DNA of 64,000 nt from an uncultured Chloroflexia bacterium (GCA_963701135.1 OY969567.1:1537847-1601846); one strand, 5' to 3'; counted from the first letter of the stretch, positions 810 to 61,455 are shown. Made by a program: numbers and translations. Notes: generated by a model from the letters alone, not told the origin.

Positions 810-851
810 CCTCCAACCTCCAACCTCTAACCTCCACCTTCCAACCTCCAG
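810..851. repeat. heptamer tandem array (CCTCCAA)x6, degenerate
   Basis: Read directly: cctccaa cctccaa cctctaa cctccac cttccaa cctccag. A 14-nt identical piece recurs at 61442-61455. Confidence 0.9.
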
Positions 852-969
852 TAGGGTGCCTGCCCTCTCCGCGGCCAGGGTGTCGCCGACGACACCAACA
901 CGGAGACGCCGCCTTCGGTCCCATCCCCCGCCGGCACCGAGGGGCCCCGCCCGGCGTCTTCGCTTGGAT

Positions 970-1521
970 ATGGCGACTCGCTTTCACTTTGCAGACGCAT
1001 ACTGGTTTCGCGTGCCGTTGAAGACGGTCGTGATCGCGCTCTCCGTGTTCGCGATCCTCTCGCTCTATCCCGCCCTTGGCAACGGCAGCTCGCAGGACCA
1101 GCAGCGCGCCATCTTCGGCTTCACCGTGCTCGCGGCGTTCATCGTTATGGCCAGCATCTTCGCCGTCGCGATCAACGACAGCCACGTCGCCATCGAAGGC
1201 GCCGACATGCACATCCACTTCGAGGCGTTCTTCAACACGCGCTTCCCGCTCTCCGACATCGTCCGCGTGGCCGAAATCGACGCGCGCCCGCGCTGGCGCT
1301 ACCGCTTCGGCTTGTCGACGAACTTCGAGGACCGCGTCGCCTGCAGCCACGGAGGACGCCTCATCGAGATCGAGCTCGCACGCCCGTGCGTCACGCGGCT
1401 GTGGCCGCGCCGCATCGCGGTGCGCCAGTACTGGCTCGCCGTCGTCGAGCACGACGAGTTCCTGGCAACGCTGCGCCAACGCGTGCCCCAGGCCTTCGAG
1501 CGCGAGTCCGCCGCCGCTTAG
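970..1521 (+). CDS. hypothetical membrane protein (two predicted TM helices plus a soluble C-terminal domain)
   Basis: Internal ATG at 970 of ORF 778-1521. The upstream part of the ORF runs through the heptamer array and is Pro/Arg-rich junk. Hydrophobic stretches VVIALSVFAILSLYPAL and IFGFTVLAAFIVMASIFAVAI. High GC3. Confidence 0.55.
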   Translation: MATRFHFADAYWFRVPLKTVVIALSVFAILSLYPALGNGSSQDQQRAIFGFTVLAAFIVMASIFAVAINDSHVAIEGADMHIHFEAFFNTRFPLSDIVRVAEIDARPRWRYRFGLSTNFEDRVACSHGGRLIEIELARPCVTRLWPRRIAVRQYWLAVVEHDEFLATLRQRVPQAFERESAAA

Positions 1522-1563
1522 CCGCGTGCCCAGCCTGTATCATGGCATTGGAAGGGTTGACCG

Positions 1564-5564: not shown

Positions 5565-6062
5565 ATGCGCTCCCGGCTTATTCTCATCCTCGCCTTCGCG
5601 CTCCTCGCCGTCACGCTCACCGCGCGCGCCGCGGCCACGCACCCGGACTGCACCGTCGAACGCGTGATCGATGGCGACACGTTCGTCTGCACCGACGGAA
5701 CGCACGTCCGGATGCTCCAGATCAACGCGCAGGAGCTGGGCGCGTGCGGCGGCGAGTGGGCGGGCGCGGCCCTGCGCAACATCTTCCTCCCGCCCGGCAC
5801 GCAGGTCCGGCTGAAGTACGACGCCGTCACCGTCGACAAGTACGGCCGCGAGCTCGCCGCGCCGATCGTCCGCGGCAGCGACGGCGCCGACTACAACATC
5901 AGCATCGTGATGGTGTACGTGGGGCTCGCGAAGGCCGCCTACTACGGCGACAACGCGAAGTACCTGGAGTGGGCGCGCGCGGCGCAGGAGTGGGCGCGCA
6001 CCGCGCAGTGGAACATGTGGGCCCCCGGCGGCCCGTACAACGGCGCCACCGACTGCGGCTGA
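5565..6062 (+). CDS. secreted thermonuclease (staphylococcal-nuclease/SNase-like) family protein
   Basis: ATG 5565. Signal-like MRSRLILILAFALLAVTLTARAAA, then VIDGDTFVC..G..VRMLQINAQE...YGRELA, typical of the SNase fold. Confidence 0.65.
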   Translation: MRSRLILILAFALLAVTLTARAAATHPDCTVERVIDGDTFVCTDGTHVRMLQINAQELGACGGEWAGAALRNIFLPPGTQVRLKYDAVTVDKYGRELAAPIVRGSDGADYNISIVMVYVGLAKAAYYGDNAKYLEWARAAQEWARTAQWNMWAPGGPYNGATDCG

Positions 6063-6137
6063 CCCGCGGCCGCGGCCTCGCCTGAACGACGCGCCAGCGC
6101 AGCGGTGTGCGTCGCCAGCGGAGAACTCCAAAATCCT

Positions 6138-6200
6138 CGTTTGATATAGTGCCGCGTCGGCCGGGGAGTGGCGCAGTCCGGTAGCGCGCCTGGTTTGGGA
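6138..6200 (+). repeat. left copy of 63-bp direct repeat: tRNA-Pro promoter region plus tRNA-Pro 5' half (nt 1 to end of anticodon loop, 6162-6200); truncated tRNA fragment
   Basis: 61/63 identical to 7484-7546. The match ends exactly after CCTGGTTTGGGA (anticodon stem 5' arm plus loop). Confidence 0.9.
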
Positions 6201-6308
6201 TTCCACCGGGCTCTACAAGCTAGTCTGACAGCCCCTTCCATCTGATTTCCGATGCGCAGCTAGTCTAGTTAGGCGCACTCGTGCGCTAGGTCGCTCTGGG
6301 GAGATGAA

Positions 6309-6752
6309 ATGGCAGCACAAACACGAAAGGCATCCAAGCCGAAGCCCACGGCGGAGGCGCGAAAAACCCCCATCCTCCAGTATTCGATTCCGTGTGTGGC
6401 GGTGCAGCGTCAAGAAGGCAATGTCTTAATCGTGAACCCCTTCGACACGTTGACATTCGTCGGGGCGGCCGGCCTGCCTGCGCAGTTCGTAATATTAGAT
6501 TGCTGGACCAACGGCGTCGGCGTCTGGCGTACCCATCTCACTGTGAACGACTTGGCAGGCGAGGAGCTTTTTCGGACGAATGAAGTTCGTTTCTGGCTCG
6601 AGGCTCCGATACGGCGTCACCAGGTCGAGAATTACGTTGCGCTCGTTCTTCCCGAGCCGGGAATCTACCTCGTACGCGAATACTTGGAGAACGTGTTGGC
6701 CCTCGAATACCGGCTCAAGATGGACATCCTGTCCGCGCCGCCGGCAGCGTGA
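6309..6752 (+). CDS. hypothetical protein (147 aa) in islet
   Basis: ATG preceded by GGGGAG. Product has a Lys-rich N-terminus (MAAQTRKASKPKPTAEARK) followed by a probably beta-rich domain. Family not recognised. Confidence 0.55.
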   Translation: MAAQTRKASKPKPTAEARKTPILQYSIPCVAVQRQEGNVLIVNPFDTLTFVGAAGLPAQFVILDCWTNGVGVWRTHLTVNDLAGEELFRTNEVRFWLEAPIRRHQVENYVALVLPEPGIYLVREYLENVLALEYRLKMDILSAPPAA

Positions 6753-6791
6753 GGGCTATGATAGACTTCGATTCCCGCCGATACACTGAAT

Positions 6792-7061
6792 ATGGAGCGC
6801 ACGATGATCTCAGGCCAGTTTTCGATCTCGACCGGACGCCAACCGGCAGTGCTGCGCCGCAACACGGAGACGGATCTCAGTCGCAACACTGGCGCCGAGG
6901 ATGCGAACGACTTGACGCTGATGGACGAGGCAGATCGTGACTATGCCCGCGGACTCGGCGGGCCAGTCGAAGCTGCCTTCGAGGCCTTACGTCGTGCAAG
7001 CGGCAAACACGAAAAAACTCGTGCATCAACTCCGCGCCGTGCAAAGGTCGAAGCCCGCTGA
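6792..7061 (+). CDS. candidate antitoxin partner of the RelE-like toxin (uncertain extent)
   Basis: ORF immediately upstream of, and overlapping, the toxin ORF by about 120 nt. No recognisable RHH/HTH motif. The overlap is unusually long, so either boundary may be wrong. Confidence 0.3.
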   Translation: MERTMISGQFSISTGRQPAVLRRNTETDLSRNTGAEDANDLTLMDEADRDYARGLGGPVEAAFEALRRASGKHEKTRASTPRRAKVEAR

Positions 7062-7275
7062 TCTCGCAAGAGTCGAAGATGCGATCAAACAGCTCGCGAC
7101 CAACCCTCGCCCCTTCGGTAGTGAGAAACTAGACAAGGACACCTATCGCCTGCGATGCGGCGATTGGCGCATTATCTATCGCGTTAGCGACGACCAGAAC
7201 GAAGTGCGCGTCGGTGCTGTCCTCCGTAGAAACGAGCGGACGTACAAAGACAGAGCAACCGGCCTGTTCGACTGA
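6943..7275 (+). CDS. RelE/ParE-family type II toxin
   Basis: ...DLARVEDAIKQLATNPRPFGSEKLDKDTYRLRCGDWRIIYRVSDDQNEVRVGAVLRRNERTY matches the RelE/ParE pattern (NPxP.G.K.L....yRlR.GdyRiiY.v.d....v.v..v.hR...Y). Start codon uncertain (GTG 6937, ATG 6943, or later). Confidence 0.75.
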   Translation: MPADSAGQSKLPSRPYVVQAANTKKLVHQLRAVQRSKPADLARVEDAIKQLATNPRPFGSEKLDKDTYRLRCGDWRIIYRVSDDQNEVRVGAVLRRNERTYKDRATGLFD

Positions 7276-7507
7276 CGAGCAGCTTCCCGCCCCATTGAAC
7301 GGCAGAACCCCATGCGCCCGAGCAGCCGCGCCTTGAGCTTGTTCCGCACCCGGCGCTGTAGCCCGCGCCGATGCGTCGGACCACGCCGTAGCTGCGCGTT
7401 AGGCTACCCGCGCCATTGCGATACCGCCCTTACTGGATCGCCTCCCGAGCGTCGCGCACACTCCCGACACGCCGCCGGATGCGCGTTTGATAGAATGCCG
7501 CGTCGGC

Positions 7508-7585
<78 letters not shown>

Positions 7586-7736
7586 ACGGCCGCAGAGCAC
7601 GGCGAATCGTGAGCCGCCTGCTTACGCGCGCCTCTTCTTCACGCCCTTGTCGTCCGCCGTCTTGCCCTGTTAACCCGGCTGTGAAGCGGCCCGGGGTAGT
7701 CTCGTGCTACATGCATCCTTCCAGCAGGAGGCTCCT

Positions 7737-8225
7737 ATGCGGCGAACGCTCTTACTCCTGACCACCTTGGCGGCACTCGCGACAGCAGCGCTCACTCTCG
7801 CGTGCGGCGAAGACGAGACAGATGCGGACAAGACCAGCACCGCGCTGGCCGGCGGAGCGGGCACTCCCGCCGCCGGCGGAGCGGAGGCCGCGACCGTGGA
7901 CGTGACACTCAACGACTTCGGGATTGCGCTTGGAGAGTCCTCCGCGGCTTCCGGCAAGGTCACGTTCGACATCACGAACGAAGGTCCGAGTGAGCATGAG
8001 TTCATTGTGCTCAAGACCGACCTGCCCGCCGATGCCCTGCCCATGACGGACGACACGGTTGACGAGGAAGCGGACGGCATCGAGGTGATCGACGAGGTCG
8101 AGGAGATCGCCGACGGCGAGACCGGCACCCTGGACGTCGACCTCGACCCGGGCAAGTACGTCGTCATCTGCAACGTCGAGGAGCACTACGGCAGGGGTAT
8201 GCACGCGGCATTCACCGCTCGTTAG
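7737..8225 (+). CDS. cupredoxin-like (type-1 copper) lipoprotein
   Basis: AGGAGG RBS and ATG 7737. Lipobox LTLAC. Candidate ligands H (PSEHEF) and C-x4-H-x4-M ([12 protein letters not shown]). Confidence 0.7.
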
Positions 8226-10293: not shown

Positions 10294-10303
10294 CGCTGCG
10301 CGA

Positions 10304-10338
10304 CAGCAAACAGCAAACAGCAGACAGCAAACAGCAAA
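10304..10338. repeat. heptamer tandem array (CAGCAAA)x5
   Basis: cagcaaa cagcaaa cagcaga cagcaaa cagcaaa, starting 11 nt after the typA stop. Confidence 0.9.
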
Positions 10339-10379: not shown

Positions 10380-11057
10380 ATGACCATCGACGAGATCATC
10401 GCCGAGCTGCGGTCGCACGCGAACCCCTCCAACGTCGAGGGCATGGCGCGCTACGGCATCAGCGCCGTCAACACGCTCGGCGTCAACATCCCGACGCTGC
10501 GGGCGCTCGCGAAGCGCGCCGGCCGCGACCACGCGCTCGCACAGCAGCTCTGGGACACCGGCATCCACGAGGCGCGCATCCCGGCGGCGATGGTTGACGA
10601 GCCCGCGAAGGTCACGAAGCGCCAGATGGACCGCGGGGCCGCGGACTTCGACTCGTGGGACGTTGTCGACGGCTGCTGTGGCACGCTGTTCGACCAAACG
10701 CCGTACGCATACGAGAAGGCGCTGCAGTGGAGCGCGAGCCGCCGCGAATACGTGAAGCGCGCCGGCTTCGTGCTGATGACGCAACTCGCCGTGCACGACA
10801 AGAAGGCGCTCGACGAGACGATGCTGCAATTCCTGCCGGTCATCGTCCGCGAGTCGGGCGACGAGCGGAACTTCGTCAAGAAGGCGGTGAACTGGGCGCT
10901 GCGCCAGATCGGCAAGCGCAACCGCCGCCTCAACGCCGCCGCCATCGCCACCGCACACGAGATCCTGGCGCTGAACACGCGCGCCGGCCGCTGGATCGCC
11001 CGCGACGCCCTCCGCGAGCTGCGGTCGGACGCCGCCCAGCGCCGGCTCAAGCGCTGA
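10380..11057 (+). CDS. DNA alkylation repair protein (AlkD-like HEAT-repeat family)
   Basis: ATG 10380. EIIAELRSHANPSNVEGMARYGI....LGV..P.LRALAK...DHALAQQLW.TG.HEARI...FVKKAVNWALRQIGKRN pattern typical of this family. Confidence 0.7.
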   Translation: MTIDEIIAELRSHANPSNVEGMARYGISAVNTLGVNIPTLRALAKRAGRDHALAQQLWDTGIHEARIPAAMVDEPAKVTKRQMDRGAADFDSWDVVDGCCGTLFDQTPYAYEKALQWSASRREYVKRAGFVLMTQLAVHDKKALDETMLQFLPVIVRESGDERNFVKKAVNWALRQIGKRNRRLNAAAIATAHEILALNTRAGRWIARDALRELRSDAAQRRLKR

Positions 11058-11084
11058 ACCACCCGCAACCGACGATTCTGATGT

Positions 11085-12364
11085 ATGCTCTCTGCCGTGC
11101 GAAGCAAGGCTTTCCTGCTTGTACTCGTCTGCGTATCCGTCGCGGCAGTGATCGCAGCGTGCGGCAACGGCTCTCCCACCGAGAAGCCGCGCCAGATCGA
11201 TGTGTCGGCGCTCACGTTCGAAGACGTGCAGCAACGCGCGCTGACGGCGATTGGGGCCGAGGACAAGGTGCTCCACCTCACGACCGTCTTCGCATCCGCG
11301 CGTGAGCATGTCGATACGGAGGCATGGATCGATGCCGAACGCGATCTCGCGAGGAAGCAATCCGGCGGGCAGATCTCGGTCTACTACGAGCGCCGCATCG
11401 CAATGACCGGGCCCGGCGAACGCCTGACCGACGCACGCATCGACTCACCGCTGGAGAAGACGTTGATCTACGCGCTGGGCTACCTCATGTGGATCCTCGA
11501 GCCAGCGTATACGGACCGCAGCCTCCGCGAAGGAGCGGTTGACGGCAACCCCGCGATCATCGTGCAGGTTTCACGCAAGAAGTACGACTACGACGCCATC
11601 GAGACCGCAAAGGTGTACCTCGACGAGTCGTTCCTGCCGCTGCGGCTGGACTACGATTCAGGCACCTCACGCTTTGGGAAAGACTCGTCCGTCTACCGCC
11701 GCGAGTTCGTGGACCGCGAAAGCATAGCGCCCGGATTCTTCTCTCCGGATGCCGTGAGCGCCGTCGCCCGCACGCCACTCGATGACCTTGCCGCGGCTCG
11801 AACAGCGGGCCTCGACGTTACTGGCTCGGTGAGCGGTTCGAGGACATGGCGTTGGACGACGTCTCCTTCGCGGACGCGGTGCAGGACGCGGGCGCGGGGC
11901 CGGCCTTCAGTCTCAGCTACAAGCATCCCGACTTCTTCATGCCGGCGCCGTGCGCGCGCGTGTCGTTGTACAGCCAGAAGGCATGGGAGACGCTCGTCGA
12001 AGCGCGAGACCGTAACAGTCCCGGCTGGGCCGACGCCGGTGAGGTCGTCGTAGTCGTCCCACTGAGCGGCGGAACAGCGATGGTCTACCGTGACACCTCG
12101 GCCCCGCCGCCGCTCCCTGGCGTGACTTTCATCGCCCCCGTCGCCATTACGCCAAACCCGTTCACCACGCCACCGCCAGGGCCGTCCGCCTTGCCGGTCG
12201 TACCCGGAGACACGGGCGCGCGACGCTGGGCACGGGTGACGCTCGACTCGGGCGGCGTGATCGAGGTCGATACGAACTGCGGCCCACCGGGTAGCAACGT
12301 GTATCGCACAGACGAGGCCTTCATCCGTCTCGTCCAAGCGTTGCGCCTGTACGACGGACCGTAA
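11085..12364 (+). pseudogene. lipoprotein of unknown function, interrupted by one frameshift (about 11819)
   Basis: Lipobox VIAAC at the N-terminus. Frame 1 becomes Arg/Ser/Thr junk after ...TAGLDV, while the next frame continues YWLGERFEDMALDDVSF... to TAA 12362-12364. A -1 shift at gttac joins them. Confidence 0.55.
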
Positions 12365-12435
12365 AGCGGACCCGAGACATCTTCACCACTAGCGCCCAAT
12401 CCCGTACGATGGCGCCCGAGTCCGTCCCGTAAACG

Positions 12436-13240
12436 ATGGAGGGCGCCGTGGCCGATGTCCGCAAGTTCGAGATCTCGCTGGCCGCGTGGTCGATGCACAA
12501 GATGTTCTTCGCGCGCGAGATCGACCAGCTCGGCATGGTCGACCTCTGCCACGACCTCGGCATCGGCGGGCTGGAGCTCGTCAACACGTTCTTCCCGTCG
12601 CCCCAGTACGGCTACCTGAAGCAGCTGCGGAAGCGCGCCGACGACGCCGGCATCAAGATCCTGCTGATCATGTGCGACGCCGAGGGCAGCATGGCCGGAC
12701 CCGAGCGCGCCAGCCGCCTGCTCGCCGCGAAGAACCACCACAAGTGGGTCGACATCGCCGCCGTGCTCGGCTGCCACTCGATCCGCTGCAACACCGGCGC
12801 GCAGGAGGGCGACCCGGACGCGCTCGACCGCTGCGCCGAGAGCTTCGCCGCGCTCGCCGAGTACGCGGACGCCGCCGGCATCAACGTGCTCATCGAGAAT
12901 CACTGGGGGCTCGTCGTCCGACCCGGACTGGCTGCTGCCGCTCATCGAGAAGGTGCATCACCCCCGCTTCGGCACGCTGCCCGACTTCGGCAACTTCCCG
13001 GACAGCATCGACCGCTACGACGCCGTGCGCCGCATGATGCCGTACGCGAAGGCGGTCAGCGCGAAGTGCTACGACTTCGACGCCGACGGCAACGAGACGA
13101 AGATCGACTTCCCCCGCATGATGACGATCGTCGGCGACGCCGGCTACCGCGGCTACGTCGGCATCGAGTACGAAGGCGAGCGCCTGGCCGAGCGCGAGGG
13201 CATCCTCGCGTGCAAGGCGCTGCTCGAACGCCTTCAGTGA
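12436..13240 (+). pseudogene. sugar-phosphate isomerase/epimerase (xylose-isomerase-like TIM barrel), one frameshift near the G5 run at about 12905
   Basis: N-terminal part ...GINVLIENHWGL in frame 1. Continuation SSDPDWLLPLIEKVHHPRFGTLPDFGNF...GYVGIEYEGE in the next frame (ORF 12953-13240). Confidence 0.7.
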
Positions 13241-17502: not shown

Positions 17503-18354
17503 ATGTTCACTTCGCTCCGTAGCTACGCGCGCTCGGTTTTCTTGCCCCAGGACGCCGGTCAGGCGGCGCTGCCCCGCCTCGATCTCCTCGTCATGGCGTT
17601 CGCAGCCACGGCGGCGCTCGTGCTCGTGGCCGCGGACGTGTTCCAGCGCGCCATCTACTATCGCAACATCCCGACACTGGACATCGATGGTCAGTACAAC
17701 GTCGAGACGTGGTTCCATACGGTTGTCCTGGGCGGCGTAGCCCTGTGTGCGCTCGGCATCGCCTTCACGCACTTCACGAACGCACGGCGGCTGCAGTGGC
17801 TGGGCGCCGCTGCCGGCATCGCCTTCTTCTCGCTCGATAAGAGCATCTCCCTCCACGAGCGCGCGGGGATCGCGATCGTTAACCGGCTTGACCTGCCGCG
17901 AGAAGCCGGGCGCGTGGCGTGGCAGGTGGCATGGTCTCCGTTGATCCTGACGACCGCCGTCCTCTTGATCATCTGCGTCTGGAGATCCCCGCTGAACACG
18001 AAGATGTGGGTCCTCATCGGGCTGGCGCTTGCGGGCGTCAAGCTGGCCATGGAGGCGACAGTCTTCCCGCTGACGCAGCTCGGCTGGGCCGCGGCCGACC
18101 GCGGCATCGTCTACGGGATCGAAACGAATATCGAGGAGACGGCGCAGCTCATGGGATTCGCGGCGTTCCTCGCCGCATTCTCACAACTGTTCGTTCAACC
18201 GGCTCTCCGCCCTCGCCCGCGGCGAAGCGCTCGACGCCGTGCCCGCGGCGGCGATGACGCCCGACACCGTGGCGGCGCCGCAGCGGCGCTCGACGGTCCA
18301 GCCCGGCCTCTCGCACCGCCCCTGACACGGCATCACACCCGTCTCGCGGTGTAA
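17503..18354 (+). CDS. hypothetical integral membrane protein
   Basis: ATG 17503. At least 6 hydrophobic segments. The last about 50 aa are Arg-rich, and an alternative frame reads more protein-like (NRLSALARGEALDAVPAAAMTPDTVAAP...), so the 3' end may contain a frameshift. Confidence 0.5.
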   Translation: MFTSLRSYARSVFLPQDAGQAALPRLDLLVMAFAATAALVLVAADVFQRAIYYRNIPTLDIDGQYNVETWFHTVVLGGVALCALGIAFTHFTNARRLQWLGAAAGIAFFSLDKSISLHERAGIAIVNRLDLPREAGRVAWQVAWSPLILTTAVLLIICVWRSPLNTKMWVLIGLALAGVKLAMEATVFPLTQLGWAAADRGIVYGIETNIEETAQLMGFAAFLAAFSQLFVQPALRPRPRRSARRRARGGDDARHRGGAAAALDGPARPLAPPLTRHHTRLAV

Positions 18355-18920
18355 CGGCCGCCACGCAGGGCTTCGAGGAACGCCGCTTCCGTGCGCACGT
18401 CGTCGATGAACTCGGTGGCGCACACGCCCACTTCCCGCACGGCGTGCGAATCGCTGCCGCCGATCCCCGGCAGCGACAGTCCGCTCGCGAGCCGGGCCGC
18501 ATTGTCGTTCTGGAGCATGCCTTCGGTGCCGTTGTGCACCTCGACCGAGTCGAAGACCGAGGCGAGGTCGTCGGGCGGCAGCGAGCCGTAGCGCCGGCTC
18601 GGGTGCGCCAGGTACATCAATCCGCCTTCGTCCCGCACGATGCGGTGCAGCCCCGCCAGCGTCGCCATCGACGCGTGATAGTGCGTCACGCCGAATACGA
18701 GCACGTGGCCGACCTCGGTCGTCACCTCCATGCCGCGCAGCACCGTGAACTCCATATCCGCCGCCACGCGCTCGACCTCCGGCAGCGGCCACAACGCGTC
18801 GTGCTCGGTGATGCACACGCCGTCGAGCCCGCGCGCACGGGCGGCGCGCACGAGCGCCTCGGGCGTCAGCGCGCTGCACGCCGAATGCACCTTCGTGTGA
18901 CAGTGGAGGTCGATCAGCAT
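18333..18920 (-). CDS. PHP-domain metal-dependent phosphoesterase
   Basis: MLIDLHCHTKVHS...GVCITEHD...GMEV...AHP...GGSDSH, the typical PHP His/Asp motif series. 195 aa. Confidence 0.75.
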   Translation of the reverse strand: MLIDLHCHTKVHSACSALTPEALVRAARARGLDGVCITEHDALWPLPEVERVAADMEFTVLRGMEVTTEVGHVLVFGVTHYHASMATLAGLHRIVRDEGGLMYLAHPSRRYGSLPPDDLASVFDSVEVHNGTEGMLQNDNAARLASGLSLPGIGGSDSHAVREVGVCATEFIDDVRTEAAFLEALRGGRYTARRV

Positions 18921-18933
18921 CGGACGACGGCAA

Positions 18934-19788
18934 TCAGCAAACGGCAGACAGCAAACGTTGAACGGAGCACTCTCTCCAAGTCGCGACCTTTGCTGTTTGC
19001 TGTCTGTTGTTTGCTGTGGCAGCGGCTCCGCCGCTGGCTACTGCCAGCCCTTGCGCGCGCCCGGTCACCATCTCCAGCGGGCCGGCCGGCCAGTTGTAGC
19101 CCAGCCGCATCACTTCGTTGATGTCCTCCGCGCTGGCGATGCCTTCTTCCAGCACCTTGCGCGCTTCGGCGACCATCGCGAAGTAGACGCGGTTGCCGAC
19201 GAAGCCGTACTTGCCGGGCGCGTCCTTCACGCGGATCGGCACCTTGCCGAGCCGGCCGGTGAGCTCCACCATCACGCCGATCGTCTCCTGCGACGTCTCC
19301 GGCGCGTAGATGATCTCGATCGGCTTCATGATGAAGGCCGGGCTGAACCAGTGGAAGCCGACGAAGCGGTCGCGCCGCGAGACCGCCTTGTTCAGGTCGG
19401 AGATCGCGAACCCCGACGTGTTCGACGCGAAGATCGCCTCGCCCTTGACGATGCGGTCGAGCTCCGAGAAGACGCTCTTCTTCAGCTCGAGGTTCTCGGG
19501 CACCGCCTCCACCACCAGGTCGCAGTTGCGCAGGTCGTCCACGTCCTCCGTGAACGAGAAGCGAGCCACGGTGGCGTCGTACTCCTCCTGCGTCATCTTG
19601 CCGCGCTCGACGGAGCCCTTGAGCCCGAACCGGCCGTCGACCATCGACTGGCGCGTCTTCTCGATCAGGTCGTCGTTCAGGTCGCGGATGATGGTGCGGA
19701 ACCCGTGAGCCGCGAACGTCTGGGCGATGCCGCCGCCCATGACGCCGCCGCCCATCACTCCAACCAGCTTGATATCGTCGATGTTCAT
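18934..19788 (-). CDS. 3-hydroxyacyl-CoA (3-hydroxybutyryl-CoA) dehydrogenase family protein; 3' end uncertain
   Basis: ATG 19788. VGVMGGGVMGGGIAQ Rossmann motif, ...SNTSGF..., GFHWFSP, PGKYGFVGNR, GPLEM. The last about 45 codons run through the CAGCAAA inverted arrays and are not family-like. Confidence 0.75.
   Translation of the reverse strand: MNIDDIKLVGVMGGGVMGGGIAQTFAAHGFRTIIRDLNDDLIEKTRQSMVDGRFGLKGSVERGKMTQEEYDATVARFSFTEDVDDLRNCDLVVEAVPENLELKKSVFSELDRIVKGEAIFASNTSGFAISDLNKAVSRRDRFVGFHWFSPAFIMKPIEIIYAPETSQETIGVMVELTGRLGKVPIRVKDAPGKYGFVGNRVYFAMVAEARKVLEEGIASAEDINEVMRLGYNWPAGPLEMVTGRAQGLAVASGGAAATANNRQQTAKVATWRECSVQRLLSAVC
18935..19016. repeat. inverted pair of heptamer arrays: (CAGCAAA)x3 18935-18955, 33-nt spacer, (TTTGCTG)x4 18989-19016
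   Basis: Read directly. The two arms are reverse complements and could form a long imperfect hairpin. Confidence 0.9.
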
Positions 19789-19807
19789 CGCTACCCCCGC
19801 ATCTTGC

Positions 19808-20360
19808 TCAGTAATCACGCACCTTGCGGTTCGCCTGATCGAGCCGAAACGTGGCCGTCAGGTCAACGACCGCCGACGTCACGTTGCGGCACGGTGGATC
19901 CGCCCCGTCTCGCGGGAGGAGCGCCACCGGGCAATTGCTCAACGACAAACACGAGAGCGTGCCGGACATCGCGACGTTGCTCGCGTCGTCGATGTTGACG
20001 GTACAGCCTCGGCAGCCCTCGTAACAGCGGAACGGGCCGTCCTCCAGGGCCAGGTAGACATCTCTGAGGTCACCATACGCACCCGCCCCGGAGTATGGCC
20101 CGACGTTCGAGCCACAGTCGTCCCCATGCGCCCAGTGCGAAGTCCAACCGCAGCCTCGGCGGCTTCTCGGCCGAGAGCGTCGCCGCGCCGTAGGCGGCGG
20201 AGCCCTCGCTCACGCGCGCGTCGGCCGTGCGGCCATTCGACAGGTGCACCTCGCCATCACCACGGTGGAAGTAGACTCGGCCAGGCTCCGCCCGGCACGC
20301 GAACCCCGCGCTCGCGATCAAGAGCGCCGCGCCGAGCCCCGAGAGCCCGGACGAGTGCAT
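19808..20360 (-). pseudogene. secreted Cys-rich hypothetical protein, apparently one frameshift (about 20150)
   Basis: Signal peptide MHSSGLSGLGAALLIASAGFA in ORF 20070-20360. The adjacent frame continues CGWTSHWAHGDDCGSNVGPYSGAGAYGDLRDVYLALEDGPFRCYEGCRGCTVNIDD...CPVALLPRDGADPPCRNV... to TGA (complement 19808-19810). Confidence 0.45.
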
Positions 20361-20373
20361 TACGGCACCTCCG

Positions 20374-21708: not shown

Positions 21709-21757
21709 GTGCTGCTCCTTCGATGCGCGTGGCGTGCGGCCATTGTAGGGAAACGAC

Positions 21758-21792
21758 GAACCAAGAACCACGGACGAAGAACCGAGAACCGT
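21758..21792. repeat. heptamer tandem array (GAACCRA)x5, degenerate
   Basis: gaaccaa gaaccac ggacgaa gaaccga gaaccgt. The inverted relative lies at 47656-47683. Confidence 0.85.
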
Positions 21793-21910
21793 GGGCGGTC
21801 ACCTGGGAGCGCCACGCCGGGACCGTCGCCATCGCGTCGGGATCCCGATGCCCGCCCGTCGGGCGCGGCCGGCACGCTGCAGCCGATGATGGCGGCGTTG
21901 GAGGTGCGCG

Positions 21911-22966
21911 ATGCGGACGCTGCTGATGGTGATTCTGATGATGCTGGTGGCCGTCGCCGCCGGCCTGTCGTTTGTGCTGCAGGCGGCCGCGCAGGAGCAG
22001 GCTTCGGCGGAGCTGGAGTTCGGGTGCAGATCAGACCAGCTTAGGGCGGCGGTGGTGTCCGGCGTACCCACGCTGATGACCTGCACGGCAACGGCACGCA
22101 ACACAGGTTCCGTGTCCCTCGCGGGAGGTCAGCTGTCATTTGTCCCGGCGTCCAACTTGCCGACTCCCGACGCCTATTACTTCTGGAGCGCGGTTCACGA
22201 CGGCGTCCCTCAGACGATCAGCGAGACCCAGCTCACGTACGACTTTGGAGATATCGCGCCTGGCGCGTCGAGCGTCATCGTGCTCGAAATCATCGTTCGC
22301 AGCACTCACGACTACGGCGCCGACGTCGTGCTGCTGGCACAACCCGACCAGCGCGAATACGCCCGCGTGGCGTTCCACGGCAGCGTTACCGCAGCCGGAC
22401 CCGGGAATCCGCCAGCCACACTTCAGCTAGAGGCGGCGCCGGTGTCACTCGCGCCGGGCCTGTACCAGGCGAGCCTTACCGTCACTAGCGAGTCGGAGAA
22501 GCTGGTGTTCATCACGGCCGATGTCGGGCTTGAACCGGACTTCGTGATCCCTGACCGGTTTCGCCGCGTCGTCGACGGGCCTCGGAACGCGCCGTCACCG
22601 CTGCCGGGCCGGTTCCCGCTGACGACGGTCGAGATTGAGCCCTACGCCCCGCCCGGAGAACCAGAGGTCTTCATCTTCGACATCGACGCGACCGGCGCCT
22701 GTTACGGAGGACCGATCGCCATCGTCGCGACCGCACGCACACTCGACGGGCGCTTGCTGCGCCCGGCCCTGCTCGACTATGTCTCGTGGGATGGCGCCAA
22801 CTGCGTCTCGGGCCTGCCGAACGGCGGCGCCGGGCCATTACCGGCGCGTCACGACGCCCTGCTGCTGGCCCTCGCGCTGCTGCTCGGCGGCGCGAGGCTG
22901 CTCGCGCTCGGCCTCTCGCTACGGCGTCCGAATCGCGCCGGACACACTGACAGACTGACAGACTGA
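21911..22966 (+). CDS. secreted/cell-surface protein with C-terminal hydrophobic anchor and basic tail
   Basis: N-terminal signal MRTLLMVILMMLVAVAAGLSFVLQAAA. C-terminus ...GLPNGGAGPLPARHDALLLALALLLGGARLLALGLSLRRPNR. The last codons read into the octamer array. Confidence 0.6.
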   Translation: MRTLLMVILMMLVAVAAGLSFVLQAAAQEQASAELEFGCRSDQLRAAVVSGVPTLMTCTATARNTGSVSLAGGQLSFVPASNLPTPDAYYFWSAVHDGVPQTISETQLTYDFGDIAPGASSVIVLEIIVRSTHDYGADVVLLAQPDQREYARVAFHGSVTAAGPGNPPATLQLEAAPVSLAPGLYQASLTVTSESEKLVFITADVGLEPDFVIPDRFRRVVDGPRNAPSPLPGRFPLTTVEIEPYAPPGEPEVFIFDIDATGACYGGPIAIVATARTLDGRLLRPALLDYVSWDGANCVSGLPNGGAGPLPARHDALLLALALLLGGARLLALGLSLRRPNRAGHTDRLTD

Positions 22967-22998
22967 CAGACTGACGGACTGACCGACTGACGGACTAC
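22943..22998. repeat. octamer tandem array (CNGACTGA)x7
   Basis: cacactga cagactga cagactga cagactga cggactga ccgactga cggactac. Confidence 0.9.
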
Positions 22999-23053
22999 CC
23001 GCTGGTGCCAACCCTCACTGGCGGCGCCGCCGCGCGCCACGTTAGCCTGAAGC

Positions 23054-23278
23054 GTGAAGGTCAGCGACGAACGCCGCGAAGCGTACCTGCGGGCATACGA
23101 GGACTGGCAGAAGCAGCTCGCCGCGCTCCACGAGGTCTTCCTCGACGGCACGAAGACGCCCGGAGGCGACCAGATGAAGGGGCTGCTGAACCGCGAGGCG
23201 CGCGCCAAGCAACGCTACGACGAGGCGCGCCGCCAGTTGCTCGGCATCCGGGACGCCGCCGACTCACCGTTCGACTGA
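23054..23278 (+). CDS. small helical hypothetical protein (74 aa)
   Basis: GTG start with no clear RBS. High GC3. Charged helical sequence (EAYLRAYEDWQKQLAALHEVF...). Confidence 0.4.
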   Translation: MKVSDERREAYLRAYEDWQKQLAALHEVFLDGTKTPGGDQMKGLLNREARAKQRYDEARRQLLGIRDAADSPFD

Positions 23279-23288
23279 CAGGAGCCGC

Positions 23289-24134
23289 ATGACCGAGGGC
23301 TGGGTCGATTATCTGACGGGACCGTACGGCTTCATCTTCGCCTTCGCGGCGGGAGTGCTGTCGTTCCTCTCGCCGTGCGTGCTGCCGCTCGTCCCCGCGT
23401 ACCTGGCGCACCTCACCGGCACCACCGCGACGCTCGAACCGGGCCGCGCCAGCCGGCGCGATACGGTGACGCACGCCGCATCGTTCGTGCTTGGCTTCAC
23501 CGTCATCTTCACGTTCGTCGGTGCCTCTGCCGGCCTCATCGGCGCGCTCATCAGCCAGGATTCCAGCTACGCCGTCCGCGACAACCTGCCGTTGCTCGCG
23601 AAGATCGGCGGCGTCTTCCTCGTCATCATGGGCCTGAACCTGATTGGCGTCATCCGCATCCCCTGGCTGTACCGCACCTACACGCTCGAAACCGTTACCG
23701 CGGGCGGCGGCACCGTGGCCATGACCGCCGGCGGCGCCGTGGCGATGGGTGGGGGCGGGCCGTCGTGGCACGGCCTGACGTACGCCAAGTCGTTCGGCGT
23801 CGGCTCGGCCTTCGCCGTCGGCTGGACGCCATGCATCGGCCCGGTGCTGGGGGCGATCCTCACGCTGTCGGCATCGAGTTCGTCCGTCGGGAAGGGCGCG
23901 TACCTGCTGCTCGTCTACTCGCTGGGGCTCGGCGTGCCGTTTCTGATCACGGCGCTGGCCGTCGTGCCGGTCACACGCTTCTTGCGCGGCATCCGCGGCC
24001 TGATGCCGCTCGTCGAGATCCTGACCGGCGTGCTGGTGATCTTCGTCGGTGTGCTGCTGTTCTTCAACGAGCTGGCGATCTTCAACTCGTTCTTCAGCGA
24101 CATCCCGTTCCTGGACAAGTTCAATACGATCTAA
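23289..24134 (+). CDS. ccdA: cytochrome c-type biogenesis thiol-disulfide transporter CcdA (DsbD-core family)
   Basis: AGGAG RBS. LSFLSPCVLPLVPAYL and WTPCIGPVLGAIL, the two conserved Cys motifs. About 6 TM helices. Confidence 0.85.
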   Translation: MTEGWVDYLTGPYGFIFAFAAGVLSFLSPCVLPLVPAYLAHLTGTTATLEPGRASRRDTVTHAASFVLGFTVIFTFVGASAGLIGALISQDSSYAVRDNLPLLAKIGGVFLVIMGLNLIGVIRIPWLYRTYTLETVTAGGGTVAMTAGGAVAMGGGGPSWHGLTYAKSFGVGSAFAVGWTPCIGPVLGAILTLSASSSSVGKGAYLLLVYSLGLGVPFLITALAVVPVTRFLRGIRGLMPLVEILTGVLVIFVGVLLFFNELAIFNSFFSDIPFLDKFNTI

Positions 24135-24293
24135 GTCGCTCGGTCTTTCAGTCGGTCAGTCGGTCAGACGCTCACTCGATCGGTCAGACGCGCGCATACG
24201 GCCGCGGGCCACCGGGATGCGGTGAGCTGCCTCGCTGACCTACTGACCCGCTGACCGACTGACCGACTCCCCGCTGACCGACTACACTACCCC
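24135..24293. repeat. inverted pair of octamer arrays: (GTCGGTCA)-type 24135-24190, 40-nt spacer, (CCGACTGA)-type 24231-24293
   Basis: Read directly. Fills the whole ccdA-rarA intergenic space. The right arm belongs to the same family and orientation as 22943-22998. Confidence 0.9.
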
Positions 24294-24294
24294 C

Positions 24295-33861: not shown

Positions 33862-33951
33862 GTCAGTCAGTTCACAGTCTACAGTTCTCAGTTCACAGTG
33901 AGGGCTCACAGGCGCACTGTGAACTGTCTACTGCAAACTGTGAACTCGTCA
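33862..33951. repeat. inverted pair of heptamer arrays: (GTTCACA)-type 33862-33897, 19-nt spacer, (CTGTGAA)-type 33917-33951
   Basis: Read directly. The left arm starts 1 nt from the translin ATG, and the right arm overlaps the stop codon of the upstream FmdB gene. Confidence 0.9.
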
Positions 33952-41382: not shown

Positions 41383-41979
41383 TTGTACGCCGTCGTCCGC
41401 ACCGGGGGCAAGCAATACCGCGTCGAAGAGGGCCGCCCGATTACGATCGAGCGCCTGCCCGGCGAGCCCGGCCAGACCATCGAGCTGAACGACGTGCTCT
41501 TGCTGGCCGATGGCGACAGCATCACCGTCGGCGGGCCCGTGATCCAGGGCGCGCGCGTCGTTGGCACGATCGCCGAGCAGGGCCGGACGAAGAAGGTCAT
41601 CGTCTTCCGCTACAAGGCAAAGACGCGCGCCCGCAAGAAGACCGGCCACCGGCAACAGTTCACCCGCCTGATGGTCGAGGACATCCTGGCGCCGGGACAG
41701 GAGCCGAAGCCGAAGCAGGCCGCCGCGGCCGCCCCGGCTGAAGCTGCCGAGGAAGCGCCGAAGCCGCGCAGGCGTGCCCGCGCCGCCGCGCCCGCCGCCG
41801 CGCCACAGGCCGAGGCACCCGCCGCCGAGCCGCAGGCCGAGGCACCTGCCGCCGAGCCCGCCGCCGCGCCGCAGGCCGAGGCACCTGCCGCCGAGCCCGC
41901 CGCCGCGCCGCAGGCCGAGGCACCTGCCGCCGAGCCCGCCGCCGCGCCGAAGCGACGGACGCGCAAGAAGGAAGACTAG
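41383..41979 (+). CDS. rplU: 50S ribosomal protein L21 with about 95-aa Ala/Pro/Glu/Gln-rich repeat extension
   Basis: GGAGGG RBS and TTG 41383. [17 protein letters not shown]... canonical L21 core (about 103 aa), then [16 protein letters not shown]...([12 protein letters not shown])n...KRRTRKKED. Confidence 0.85.
41791..41948 (+). repeat. in-frame 39-bp tandem repeat (about 4 copies) inside the rplU 3' extension
   Basis: gccgccgcgccgcaggccgaggcacctgccgccgagccc repeated nearly perfectly. Confidence 0.85.
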
Positions 41980-47655: not shown

Positions 47656-47683
47656 CAGGTTCTTGGTTCTCGGTTCTCGGTTC
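47656..47683. repeat. heptamer tandem array (TYGGTTC)x4, inverted relative of 21758-21792
   Basis: aggttc ttggttc tcggttc tcggttc. Confidence 0.85.
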
Positions 47684-47751
47684 TGGCGGCTCCGCCGCCA
47701 TGCAAGCCGCCCTCTATAATGCGGCGACAGACGCGAAGAGGAGGACCCGGC

Positions 47752-48931: not shown

Positions 48932-49260
48932 GTGTAGTGCTTTCGAATTGGCGTTAGTTAACGCGACGCGAAGCGTGGAGCATAGCCGCCCTCGGCTGTG
49001 AGTTCGGCGAAGCCGGACCGACGCGGTACAGCGCCTCGTCTGACGGACTTCCGCCGCGTGCGAGGCCTCCCGGCGAACCGCCACGCTGAAGAAGCGTTGG
49101 AGTTAGTTAACGCGACGCGAAGCGTGGAGCATAGCCGCCCTCGGCTGTGAGTCCGGCGAAGCCGGACCGACGCGGTACAGCGCCTCGTCTGATGGACTTC
49201 CGCCGCGTGCGAGGCCTCCCGGCGAACCGCCACGCTGAAGAAGCGTTGGAAGCACTACAC
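48932..49260. repeat. composite repeat element: 2 x 149-bp tandem copies (48954-49102, 49103-49251; 2-3 mismatches) flanked by 11-bp inverted repeats gtgtagtgctt / aagcactacac
   Basis: Read directly. Fills the space between two convergent stop codons (48915 and 49260). Confidence 0.9.
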
Positions 49261-49989
49261 TAGCCGCGCTTGCGCCCAACGGCGAGCAGGTTCACACGCA
49301 GGTGCTTGAGCGCTCCGAAACGGTTCACGAGCCGCTCGAACCCGACGCCGAGCGCATACGTCGGCGTGCTGAAGGCCAGGTACTCCGGCTCCGTCTCGAA
49401 CTGGTAGAGCTGCTCGACATCCAACCCCGCGCGTTCGTACAGCGAGCGCAGCCGCGACGCCGTGTTCGCGCGATACACCGTCGGGAAGATGTCGTGCGCA
49501 TCGACGCCGCGCCACTGGTTGTACTTCAAGTGGAAGCCGTGCGGCAGCAGCGCCGAGCTCACCGTCACGTAGTGCCAGCGATTCGGCGTCAGGATCAACA
49601 GCCGCCCGCCCGGCTTGAGCACCCGCGCCAGCTCGCCGAACACCCGCTCCGGCTGCGTCAGGTGCTCCGCCACGTGGCTCGAGATCGCGATGTCGAACGC
49701 GGCGTCCCGGAACGGCAGCGCCCCCAGGTCCGCCCGCGCCGCGGCATCGATGTTGCGGTTGCCCCGCGGCTCGTCCGTCATGTCGACGCCGGCGATCAGC
49801 CGCGGCCGCTGCCCCTCGTCGAAGTGGTACTGGAAGACGCGGCCGCTGCCGCACCCCGCGTCGAGCATGGTGTCGCCACGGCGCACGTACTCGTGGATGA
49901 CGTTCCGAGAAGCGGCCGTACATGCCGCGAAACTCGGGCGGATAGAAGCGTTCCCGCAGCTCTTGCTTGCGCCAGCGCAGCAACGGCAT
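49260..49989 (-). pseudogene. class I SAM-dependent methyltransferase, one frameshift (about 49905)
   Basis: MPLLRWRKQELRERFYPPEFRGMYGRFS in the ORF 49255-49989 frame, then NVIHEYVRRGDTMLDAGCGSGRV...LKPGGRLLILTPN in the ORF 49260-50132 frame. Confidence 0.7.
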
Positions 49990-57408: not shown

Positions 57409-58553
<1,145 letters not shown>

Positions 58554-58564
58554 GCAGCAGCGGC

Positions 58565-59014: not shown

Positions 59015-59104
59015 GGGCGAGGGACAGGCGCCGTTGTGTATCATTCGACTGCTATGGTCGCATCACGCAGGCCGAAACCCTCTCCCGAGCGCCGTCGTGA
59101 ATCG

Positions 59105-59688: not shown

Positions 59689-59695
59689 CGACGCC

Positions 59696-60625
59696 ATGAC
59701 GGCCAGAAAGCGCGCCTCCACCACCGAACTCTCGCGCCTCACCGTGCTCGCCGCGGGCGACGAGCGCGCGTTTGCCGCGTACGCCGCCGAATTGCTGCGC
59801 TCCGGCGACCGGCTCGGCCGCGAGGCCGCGCTCGCGGCGCTGCTCGAACGGCCGCTGCCATCGATGCGCGAGCCGCTCCGCGAGCTCTACTTCGAGCTCG
59901 CGGCCGATGGCCTCAAGCGCGACCAGGGCGCGACGCTGCGCATCGGCATCGTCCGCATCCTCGCCGAGCTCGGCGACGTGCGCGATCGCGATATCGCGAT
60001 CGACGCCGCGAGCGCCTTTGAGAGCGTGTTCGACGACGACCTCACGTGGACGCTCCGCGTCCACGGCCTGCGACTGGTCGCCGATCTCGACGCCAATCTC
60101 TTCCCGTACTACGCCGTCGAGCATCTCGACGACAACACCGGCATCGGCGGCGAACCCGCGAACACGGCCTTCCAGCTCCTCGCCGGCACGGGCAACTACG
60201 TGCCGGTCTACCAGTGGCTGCTCGAAGGCGACCGCCACCCGCCGCTGGTGGCCGGAGCGTTTGAGCTGCTCACCGGCGGCCCGCGCGACATCGTGCAGCG
60301 TTACGCGGCGCAGGCGATGGAGCTGGCCGTCCGGCGCGCCGACGAGGCGCTCGCGACGGTGCTCGCCGAGGCCATCGTCAACCTGGAGCTGGAGGCCAGC
60401 TACAACGCACTCTCCGGTCTGATGGCGGCGAAGCTCTCCGACGAGCTGTACAACTACCTCGCGGTGCTGCTCGCCGGAACGAACCGGCCGCCGCTGCTCG
60501 CGATCCTGGAGCACGAGTTGCACCGCGGCCGTCGCCCCCGCATCATTGCCGAGGCGCTGCGCATCCGCACGACGCCGGAGCAGGCCGCGATCCTGCGCCG
60601 CTGGGAAGAGGGCGACGACGAGTGA
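59696..60625 (+). CDS. hypothetical all-helical (HEAT/ARM-like repeat) protein
   Basis: 309-aa ORF with high GC3 and a Leu/Ala-rich repeated helical pattern. Family not recognised. Confidence 0.5.
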   Translation: MTARKRASTTELSRLTVLAAGDERAFAAYAAELLRSGDRLGREAALAALLERPLPSMREPLRELYFELAADGLKRDQGATLRIGIVRILAELGDVRDRDIAIDAASAFESVFDDDLTWTLRVHGLRLVADLDANLFPYYAVEHLDDNTGIGGEPANTAFQLLAGTGNYVPVYQWLLEGDRHPPLVAGAFELLTGGPRDIVQRYAAQAMELAVRRADEALATVLAEAIVNLELEASYNALSGLMAAKLSDELYNYLAVLLAGTNRPPLLAILEHELHRGRRPRIIAEALRIRTTPEQAAILRRWEEGDDE

Positions 60626-61437
60626 CGAACGAGTACATCGATGCCAACCGCAAGCACTGGGACGAGGTCGTGCCGATCCACGTGGCATCGGAGTTCTACG
60701 ACGTCGCGAGCTTCAAAGCCGGCGAATCGAAACTCAAGCCTGTGGAGCTGGCCGAGATGAGCGACGTGCGCGGCAAGACCCTCCTGCACCTCCAATGCCA
60801 TTTCGGCCTCGATACCCTCTCGTGGGCGCGACAAGGTGCGGTCGTCACGGGCGCCGACTTCTCGCCGACGGCCATCGAGACGGCGCGCGCCCTCGCCGCC
60901 GAGGTCGCGCTCGATGCCCGCTTCGTCTGCTCGAACATCTATGACCTGCCGCAAAACCTCGAGGGCCGCTTCGACATCGTCTTCACGTCGTACGGCGTGC
61001 TCTGCTGGCTGCCGGATCTGCCGCGCTGGGCGCGCGTCGCGGCGCACTTCGTAAAGCCCGGCGGCACGTTCTACATCGCGGAGTTTCATCCCTTCGCTTC
61101 GGTGTTTGACGATGCACCGGGCGTCACCGACCTGCATGTCCGCTACCCGTACTTCCCTAGCGACGAGCCGCTTGTCTTTGACGGCGTCGGTACCTACACG
61201 GATGGCTCGGTACCGCTCGTCAACGGGCGGACGTACGAGTTCCAGCGCCCCGTGAGCGACGTGGTGACGGCGCTGATCGATGCCGGCCTGCGCATCGATC
61301 ACCTGCACGAGTTCCCGTTCAGCACCTCCCAGTTCCTGCCCTTCACCGAACCGCAGCCCGACGGCACGGTGCGCCTGACCAAACACGACGGCTGCGTGCC
61401 GCTGCTGTACTCCATCAAGGCGACGAAGCCCGCGTAG
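60622..61437 (+). CDS. class I SAM-dependent methyltransferase
   Basis: GTGA overlap with the upstream stop. ...[32 protein letters not shown]...[14 protein letters not shown]....A.....LKPGG.F. Confidence 0.7.
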
Positions 61438-61438
61438 C

Positions 61439-61455
61439 CCTCCTCTAACCTCCAC
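61439..61455. repeat. short copy (2-3 units) of the CCTCYAA heptamer family
   Basis: cctctaacctccac (61442-61455) is identical to 824-837. Confidence 0.7.

Follow-up and report, generated by a model that had tools for sequence, protein, structure and literature searches.

What are short tandem repeats doing in the bases between the genes of a GC-rich Chloroflexota genome, and could any of them matter to the cell? The question is raised by a 64,000-nucleotide stretch of an uncultured Chloroflexia bacterium (GCA_963701135.1 OY969567.1:1537847-1601846; hereafter the window), in which a sequence-only reading had noted five families of 7-8-nt tandem arrays at gene boundaries. To our knowledge, intergenic heptamer repeats have been recorded since about 1990 and no function has ever been shown for them. 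Our analysis of the window and of related genomes suggests that the arrays are dispersed intergenic microsatellites born of replication slippage, and that those arranged as inverted pairs would act as intergenic hairpins resembling repetitive extragenic palindromes (REPs); the functional step is one that we infer, and we give the reading as a whole a probability of about 0.45.

Arrays were located with Tandem Repeats Finder (TRF) and then read directly in the sequence. All 12 arrays first noted were recovered at their reported positions, and are numbered here A1 to A12 along the window. They are built from units of CCTCCAA, ACAGCAA, GAACCRA, the 8-mer CTGACNGA and CAGTTCA/GTTCACA, with three to seven slightly degenerate copies per array. 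Of these five families, the 8-mer is the only one whose unit is not 7 nt long, and none has more than three arrays in the 64 kb. The description of several families in direct and inverted orientation therefore stands; the further claim that each family occurs at two or more loci holds for the others and fails for the GTTCACA family, whose arrays are an inverted pair in one gap. When two-unit probes with at most two mismatches were compared with dinucleotide shuffles of the window, the five families gave 10, 6, 4, 15 and 4 matches, against 0.11, 0.14, 0.07, 0.60 and 0.10 in the shuffles, and every match fell on a noted array site, with none elsewhere in the 64 kb.

The arrays also stand apart in composition and position. 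The window is 66-71% G+C and the arrays 41-65%, while third-codon-position GC (GC3), which is about 0.9 in this genome, loses its periodicity at every array. Open reading frame (ORF) boundaries and family assignments likewise give each array an intergenic position, except that the one at 22941-22996 falls on a stop codon, in agreement with the sequence-only reading. The apparent overlap of A3 and A4 with a dehydrogenase ORF is due to a 1-nt frameshift (within 19038-19070, minus strand) eight codons before the stop after ...GWQ (19038-19040) that is common to all relatives; the shifted ORF gains about 35 codons and runs across A3 and A4 to 18934, and against the ancestral gene ends both are intergenic. 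The frameshift may be genuine, or it may reflect a consensus error where several G stand in a row. Annotation of such loci calls for caution, as arrays may supply stop codons (22964-22966) or artificially lengthen ORFs (18934-19037).

A TRF census of the window and 26 related loci, with genes called crudely from codon-position GC, found 18 period-7 and 10 period-8/16 arrays in about 71 kb of non-coding DNA. This total of 28 compares with a mean of 2.07 and a maximum of 6 in 100 dinucleotide shuffles. The low-GC arrays of the census (GC 0.39-0.67) are all intergenic, and the period-7/8 TRF rows within genes are low-complexity sequence of a different nature (GC 0.78-0.96). These are the features of long simple sequence repeats in the sense of Mrazek (2007): head-to-tail units of 5-11 nt run longer than chance allows, and, among the low-GC arrays, units that are not a multiple of three are restricted to non-coding DNA. 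Nor are the arrays artefacts of assembly, a concern of the sequence-only reading, since an independent Logan assembly (L009, a 1.1-kb contig) is identical across the hairpin at 33862-33950 and more than 20 independently assembled relatives bear arrays of like kind.

The arrays of most interest are those that face one another. Three gaps of the window, one third of those occupied, hold inverted pairs, with folding z scores of -2.8, -5.0 and -7.7. Coordinates below are those assigned to each array, followed, where it differs, by the span found with TRF and direct reading (marked TRF); A4, A7, A10 and A11 are in inverted orientation to the other members of their families. Between the genes for a 3-hydroxyacyl-CoA dehydrogenase and a PHP-domain protein, both on the minus strand, A4 (18989..19017) forms the 5' arm of an ACAGCAA pair, reading ACAGCAA... 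in sense, and A3 (18927..18957) the 3' arm, with the sense reading GTTTGCTG... and its end 6 nt upstream of the PHP-domain gene's ATG (18920). Between a DsbD-like membrane protein gene and rarA, on the plus strand, an 8-mer pair comprises A7 (24134..24190; TRF 24134-24178), the 5' arm of TCAGTCGG units, which starts on the final base of the DsbD-like gene's stop codon, and A8 (24231..24293; TRF 24235-24283), the 3' arm of CTGACCGA units, whose last unit overlaps a conserved TACACT box (24283-24288) 6 nt before the rarA ATG (24295). The third pair, on the minus strand, takes up the whole 87-nt gap that separates an FmdB zinc-ribbon gene from a HAD-family gene: the 5' arm A10 (33916..33951; TRF 33916-33946), reading AGTTCAC... 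in sense, starts at the FmdB stop codon (33949-33951), and the 3' arm A9 (33862..33899; TRF 33867-33899), which reads ACTGTGA/ACTGAGA in sense and has TGA in every frame, stops 5 nt short of the HAD-family ATG (33861). Seven pairs from the window and its relatives were folded, with minimum free energies of -27 to -77 kcal/mol; six have stems of about 20-35 bp and z scores of -2.8 to -7.7, and the pair of one relative (L008) is weak (z -1.5). These hairpins are long and imperfect, with loops of about 16-150 nt. An intergenic inverted pair folding into a stable hairpin is a feature shared with REPs, bacterial interspersed mosaic elements (BIMEs) and REPINs, and relatives carry comparable pairs.

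To what extent do such pairs last? A search with the DsbD-like protein found 8 loci among reference genomes and another 19 among metagenomes. The named relatives are all metagenome-assembled genomes of Chloroflexota (labeled Dehalococcoidia, Chloroflexia or Chloroflexota), with flanking proteins 53-90% identical to those of the window and a conserved gene order. The window is thus not proteobacterial, and an initial assignment to Burkholderia, prompted by GC content and the repeats, was dropped. In the nearest of these (L010, 90% protein identity) the window's 8-mer family occupies both orthologous gaps. Its DsbD-rarA gap has an inverted 8-mer pair in which unit variants, copy number and spacer all differ from those of the window, the spacer between the arms being entirely different even at this distance, and the A6 position has about 2.5 units against 7 in the window. 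The latter counts point to slippage as the means by which array length changes; the sole same-strain sequence found (L009, the one record returned by exact look-ups of four proteins) is identical to the window. Among the other relatives, the DsbD-rarA gap holds an inverted pair of a CAGCNNT 7-mer in L002, the first arm of the same 7-mer in L012, where the contig ends; L008 has a pair with degenerate units there and L007 three direct copies of CACAGATT; in L004, L006, L013 and L017 it has no array and is shrunk to about 25-50 nt.

The dehydrogenase-PHP gap tells more about the arms themselves. Seven genomes, whose flanking proteins are just 65-88% identical, carry a pair there in which, read in gene sense, the 5' arm is A/C-rich and the 3' arm G/T-rich, with loops of roughly 15-150 nt and units that include ACAGCAA, ACAGAGA, CAACAGA, AAGAACC, AGAACAG and CAACAGC; three genomes have no arrays in this gap. 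Column-wise covariation calls for an unambiguous alignment, which repeated units do not allow, and duplex energies were therefore compared in an alignment-free test. Arms from the same genome pair with a mean of -35.3 kcal/mol, against -23.9 kcal/mol for arms combined across genomes, and only 3 of 5040 permutations did as well. These data show that the arms co-evolve: the sequence of the unit drifts, and the complementarity of the arms stays.

In the reading we prefer, replication slippage would create arrays and alter their length in inter-gene bases free of coding constraint. A limited set of units, which may be grouped as an A/C-rich ACAG/AGAAC type and an ACTGA/CTGAC type, would recur at unlinked gaps, and some arrays would be copied inverted beside themselves. 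The pairs would then act as REPs and BIMEs may do, providing a structured 3' end for the upstream transcript and insulating the downstream transcription unit, which would often have its -10 box directly before the start codon in a leaderless-like arrangement. Single arrays would be mostly neutral expansions, or precursors or remnants of pairs. In proteobacteria, REPs and BIMEs are imperfect intergenic palindromes, often arranged as inverted pairs with a spacer, that lie after genes within operons or between them, stabilize or terminate 3' ends and are targets of insertion sequences (IS); their sequence differs between species and their position and hairpin are kept. The persistence of the pairs, the conserved order of their arms, the co-evolution of those arms and their location after stop codons and before autonomous promoters together suggest that the hairpin either matters or perpetuates itself.

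Several observations weigh against a functional hairpin. Template switching or gene conversion could keep the arms complementary without selection. The arrays are dispensable, since several relatives lack them at orthologous gaps. A 3'-end element would be expected in convergent gaps, yet among gaps of at least 40 nt, arrays were present in just 1 of 25 that are convergent, 12 of 135 that are co-directional and 6 of 44 that are divergent; these differences are not significant and rest on crude gene calls. No T-tract follows the stems, which are lower in GC than the genome, and a terminator scan of 18000-25000 gives no site at any array; the suggestion of the sequence-only reading that the arrays form transcript-end structures is plausible for the three inverted pairs alone, and these are not canonical intrinsic terminators. 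When 11 hairpins were folded in both senses, the sense strand was better in five, the antisense in four and the two were equal in two, with mixed G-U counts; there is thus no consistent strand difference, and no clear G-U signature of RNA-level selection on one transcript. The sample, moreover, is small, comprising one 64-kb window and one syntenic neighborhood in relatives. Two further searches gave nothing for the arrays: they overlap no consensus sigma-70 promoter, and Rfam matched a tRNA-Pro alone in the window.

Much of this is what one would expect if the arrays were a neutral by-product, the main rival to our reading and one that we consider unlikely, if quite conceivable. Slippage in unconstrained bases would create the arrays, fold-back template switching would supply their inverted partners, and gene conversion rather than selection would keep the arms alike, the cell being neither better nor worse off for them. 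The loss of arrays from orthologous gaps without visible replacement, the fast turnover of units, the want of a strand-specific RNA signal or of a canonical terminator or promoter match, and flanking genes that are functionally unrelated to one another all favor it. The hairpin of the dehydrogenase-PHP gap speaks the other way. That it persists in seven genomes, its arms keeping their order and co-evolving, fits poorly with the deletion bias usual in bacterial genomes. The recurrence of a limited number of unit types at unlinked loci and across genomes also counts against neutrality. A study of similar arrays in Xanthomonas found no regulatory effect either, as neutrality would have it (PMC4692102).

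How the arrays relate to the starts of downstream genes bears on what a hairpin could do. The arrangement TACACT, 6 nt, ATG stands before both rarA (24283-24297) and glpK (61469-61483), and at rarA it is kept in most of about 20 relatives with a readable gap; this spacing suggests leaderless mRNAs. With this box before rarA, transcription probably starts downstream of the promoter-proximal arm of the pair, which would then be missing from the rarA mRNA and be carried by the upstream transcript alone, in its 3' part. For the small gene at 23054, close relatives have TAGCCT, 5 nt and GTG, and more distant ones a leader of about 30 nt with GGAGG. With one exception, the edge of an array is 5-67 nt away from the closest start codon, and the distance to the -10 box varies from 0 to about 40 nt. 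Units of the ACTGA/CTGAC type (A6, A8 and A9) carry TGA in all three sense frames and face starts without a Shine-Dalgarno (SD) sequence, with arms ending 5, 11 and 57 nt from them. Some candidate motifs were considered here and dropped. A three-frame stop cassette is not a general property, being found only in the ACTGA/CTGAC type, about 3 of 9 start-proximal arrays, and the A/C-rich families are without stops; CTGAC of the 8-mer unit as a -35 mimic has a spacing that fits rarA in the window and L010, and not L002 or other arrays; and boxes of the LexA type (GAAC-N4-GTTC) and CRP type (TGTGA-N6-TCACA) have the wrong spacing or orientation by eye.

Proximity to promoters raises the idea that the arrays might be protein-binding DNA sites, operator-like landing places for ribbon-helix-helix or nucleoid-associated proteins upstream of core promoters. 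The omega repressor binds 7-bp heptads and MetJ 8-bp metboxes, in direct and inverted operator geometry, and from such general knowledge the 7-8-bp period and the mixed layout of the arrays would match, as would their edges near starts and beside -10-like boxes. At least five unrelated units within 64 kb, next to unrelated housekeeping genes, would need many regulators, however, and neither the variable distance to the -10 box nor the different units found at an orthologous promoter in relatives is as expected of operators; we give this explanation a slight chance. Slighter still is that of an RNA-level role for single arrays, in which A/C-rich, G-poor arrays behind stop codons would load Rho in the manner of rut sites and ACTGA-type arrays close before starts without an SD sequence would serve translation, a role proposed for the TAACTGA repeats of Beggiatoaceae. 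The A/C-rich strand is the sense strand in all four co-directional single-array gaps of the window (A1, A2, A6 and A12), although four of four is a small sample and two of the sense-strand units are not G-poor. The ACTGA/CTGAC arms with three-frame TGA facing starts parallel the TAACTGA repeats of other bacteria (PMC4679880), but the rarA box implies an array outside the rarA mRNA, and arrays occur in divergent gaps in either orientation.

The single arrays are as follows. A1 (810..851, plus strand; TRF 810-850) has about six units of CCTCCAA, its sense strand C/A-rich and free of G, and lies 5' of a plus-strand gene; A12 (61442..61455, plus strand), a two-unit copy of the same family (CCTCTAACCTCCAC), lies between a methyltransferase stop (61437) and the glpK ATG (61481), 13 nt 5' of the TACACT -10-like box (61469-61474). 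A2 (10303..10338, plus strand), with five units of ACAGCAA, begins 9 nt past the typA stop, itself part of a preceding 6-bp GC hairpin, and ends 41 nt upstream of a DNA-alkylation-repair gene (ATG 10380). A5 (21758..21792, strand undefined; TRF 21758-21790, unit GAACCAA) has about 4.7 units of GAACCRA in the divergent gap between an M20 peptidase gene (minus strand, ATG 21708, with a TACAAT -10 box) and a plus-strand gene (ATG 21911). A11 (47656..47684, strand undefined), an inverted copy of this family, lies where hisF (minus strand, ATG 47613) and a phosphotransferase-family gene (TTG 47752) diverge. A6 (22941..22998, plus strand; TRF 22941-22996), with seven units of GACTGACN, provides the stop of the upstream ORF (TGA 22964-22966), its unit having TGA in all three frames, and ends 57 nt before the GTG (23054) of the small gene with the conserved TAGCCT -10-like box.

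The neighbors of these arrays and of the pairs are housekeeping genes: typA, rarA, hisF, glpK, the M20 peptidase and the dehydrogenase. Contingency loci, in which slippage would switch an adjacent gene on and off by phase variation, had been one of the roles first suggested, and the change from 7 to about 2.5 units at the A6 site between relatives would fit. Because the flanking genes are housekeeping genes, rather than surface or restriction-modification genes, such a role is unlikely. Furthermore, no array lies inside a reading frame or a -35/-10 spacer, and the array that covers the -35 position of rarA offers the same sequence in each unit, so that a change in copy number leaves the spacing unaltered. 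The authors of the Xanthomonas study reached a negative verdict too (PMC4692102), and we see almost no chance for this explanation.

A further set of observations touches on mobile DNA. A 13-mer GC hairpin, GCGGCGGAGCCGC, has exactly two copies in the window. One (19022-19034) lies on the sense-strand 5' side of A4, directly after the ancestral dehydrogenase stop (19038-19040), and the other (47686-47698) adjoins A11; both thus adjoin A/C-rich arrays in identical relative orientation, though of different unit families, which hints at occasional copying of a module from gap to gap. A GC hairpin beside an A/C-rich array was also considered as a general module and dropped, as L002 has the hairpin at its dehydrogenase-PHP gap without arrays, so the hairpin belongs partly to the gap and not to the arrays. 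The flanks of all arrays fold with means of -7.1 kcal/mol on the 5' side and -5.7 kcal/mol on the 3' side, and those of A/C-rich arrays, by our own tally, with about -10 and -6 kcal/mol. Positions 1-781 of the window encode the C-terminal half of an IS110-family transposase (Pfam Transposase_20), truncated by the window start, and A1 begins 28 nt past the stop of this fragment (242-781); A1 could be an insertion target or part of the right end of the IS110 element. In L007 (6640-7254) a GxxExxY gene (TIGR04256, E 2.5e-45) lies within inverted (CACAGAGG)3 arrays and separates two genes that most genomes have side by side; L026 (2018-2102) has an inverted CACAGAGG pair with a short spacer and no GxxExxY gene, and L003 (9894-9917) the left array alone.

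Could the arrays then be the ends or targets of mobile DNA, either non-autonomous elements resembling REPINs or miniature inverted-repeat transposable elements (MITEs) and mobilized by some enzyme, or preferred insertion sites for IS110-family elements and small nuclease cassettes? An inverted pair with a spacer resembles a REPIN, the identical 13-mer stands beside arrays 28 kb apart, the loop of an inverted pair encloses the GxxExxY gene in L007 and is empty of it in L026, and IS110-family elements, a fragment of whose transposase precedes A1, target repeated palindromes. We nevertheless give the idea only a small chance. The L007 and IS110 cases are single anecdotes; as for MITEs, the spacers differ, and a comparison of flanks within families found nothing in common beyond the 13-mer. 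There was no sign of target-site duplications, and the elements vary in length. Moreover, REPs come in hundreds of near-identical copies and are linked to RAYT transposases, whereas within these 64 kb each hairpin is made of a different unit, and no Y1 (RAYT-type) transposase turned up in the approximately 20 of about 66 called window genes that were scanned, which is weak evidence.

A bolder alternative would bring many of these observations together: the inverted pairs would be a selected, lineage-wide structural class, hairpins of slippage-prone units maintained over long evolution at particular gaps by compensatory change, that punctuates leaderless-type units or copies itself as GC hairpin plus array, and that also docks IS110-type elements and GxxExxY genes. 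We regard this as distinctly unlikely. If true, it would be the first comparative evidence of function for intergenic heptamer repeats.

The window has other features that lie apart from the arrays. A convergent gap (48933-49261) holds a 149-bp unit twice in tandem (48948-49250; 98% identical), bracketed by a 12-nt inverted repeat, GTGTAGTGCTTTC ... GAAGCACTACAC, with no Rfam match; the unit folds no more stably than its shuffles (z -0.76). Within a plus-strand ORF (41781-41949), 39 nt (13 codons) are repeated in 3.4 tandem copies (98% identical) that encode a segment rich in Pro, Ala, Glu and Gln, a common type of coding repeat with no relation to the 7-8-nt arrays. Two stretches (6062-7896 and 11057-12612) have weak or no GC3 periodicity and no genes by the crude caller, and may represent atypical DNA or an acquisition; the tRNA-Pro (7508-7584) and a DUF6941-like ORF lie in one of them.

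How do the arrays compare with repeats already described? The sequence-only reading had likened them to the short tandemly repeated repetitive (STRR) sequences of heterocystous cyanobacteria, which were reportedly described by Mazel et al. in 1990 as tandem heptamers of several families at dispersed non-coding sites. The likeness is apt on each of these points. The differences are that the window belongs to Chloroflexota and has a much higher GC content, an 8-nt family, hairpin pairs retained in relatives and other units, those of STRR sequences being CCCCAGT, TTGGTCA and CAACAGT. REPs, BIMEs and REPINs are alike in being intergenic palindromes of inverted pairs, and unlike in that REPs are not built from tandem 7-8-nt units.

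The sequence-only reading knew of no equivalent in a GC-rich, non-cyanobacterial genome, but published accounts describe such repeats in Xanthomonas, Burkholderia, Chloroflexus and Mesorhizobium (PMC4692102, PMC4679880, PMC6749651). By the summaries they give, heptanucleotides are the commonest class of long simple repeat in most prokaryotic genomes (Mrazek 2007, in PMC4679880), among the richest genomes are those of Burkholderia, cyanobacteria, Actinobacteria and Xanthomonas, and slippage was proposed as the cause (Mrazek 2007, in PMC4679880 and PMC4692102). Three tandem heptanucleotides are recorded for Calothrix PCC 7601 (PMC4692102). Xanthomonas is the closest described case. X. campestris and X. 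axonopodis (65% GC) have about 185 intergenic GGGAATC arrays, including 70-75 convergent inverted pairs capable of forming stem-loops; about 90% of the arrays are intergenic near the upstream ORF, with about four units, housekeeping neighbors and no regulatory role found, and related species have arrays between the same genes, varying in length and sequence (PMC4692102). GC-richness, intergenic position, inverted pairs, shared gaps in relatives and housekeeping neighbors are all common to the window, which differs in having at least five families without G-tracts, with GC below that of the genome and periods of 7 and 8, in place of essentially one G-rich family with G-quadruplex potential.

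Other published families are more distant. In marine Beggiatoaceae, some Cyanobacteria and Bacteroidetes, intergenic TAACTGA occurs in 2-6 copies with stops in three frames, ends a few nucleotides upstream of starts without a ribosome-binding site, and may overlap the upstream stop (PMC4679880). It shares an ACTGA core with GACTGACN and with GAACTGA/ACTGTGA, the forward arms of which lie 5-57 nt upstream of SD-less starts. In Beggiatoaceae, however, TAACTGA is a single unit with hardly any inverted pairs (one "indirect repeat"), whereas in the window pairs are common, most families are without stops, and the rarA array lies upstream of the probable transcription start. Chloroflexus aurantiacus, of the same phylum, has 22 dispersed (GATAGRA)n arrays, Burkholderia has families of 6-8 nt and Mesorhizobium an octamer family, (AGGGGAGT)2; the authors suspected transposition or local replication errors (PMC6749651). 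These too are scattered, species-specific short units. C. aurantiacus has one dominant family, and the survey, on a different scale of detection (repeat lengths of about 10 nt upwards), describes neither hairpin pairs nor conservation at orthologous gaps (PMC6749651). What is new here is the lineage, the presence of at least five families, including an 8-mer, in 64 kb, and paired arrays retained at orthologous gaps with co-evolving arms; retention of pairs with complementary arms, seen at two orthologous gaps, was not found in the published accounts of heptamer repeats that we compared.

Overall, these data add an uncultured soil/sediment lineage of Chloroflexota to the hosts of heptamer repeats. 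If selection, and not gene conversion, causes the pattern seen in the arms, it would imply a structural role for the hairpin; otherwise, the arrays would still illustrate clearly the way in which the scarce free space of a compact, GC-rich genome is taken up by slippage and inverted duplication.

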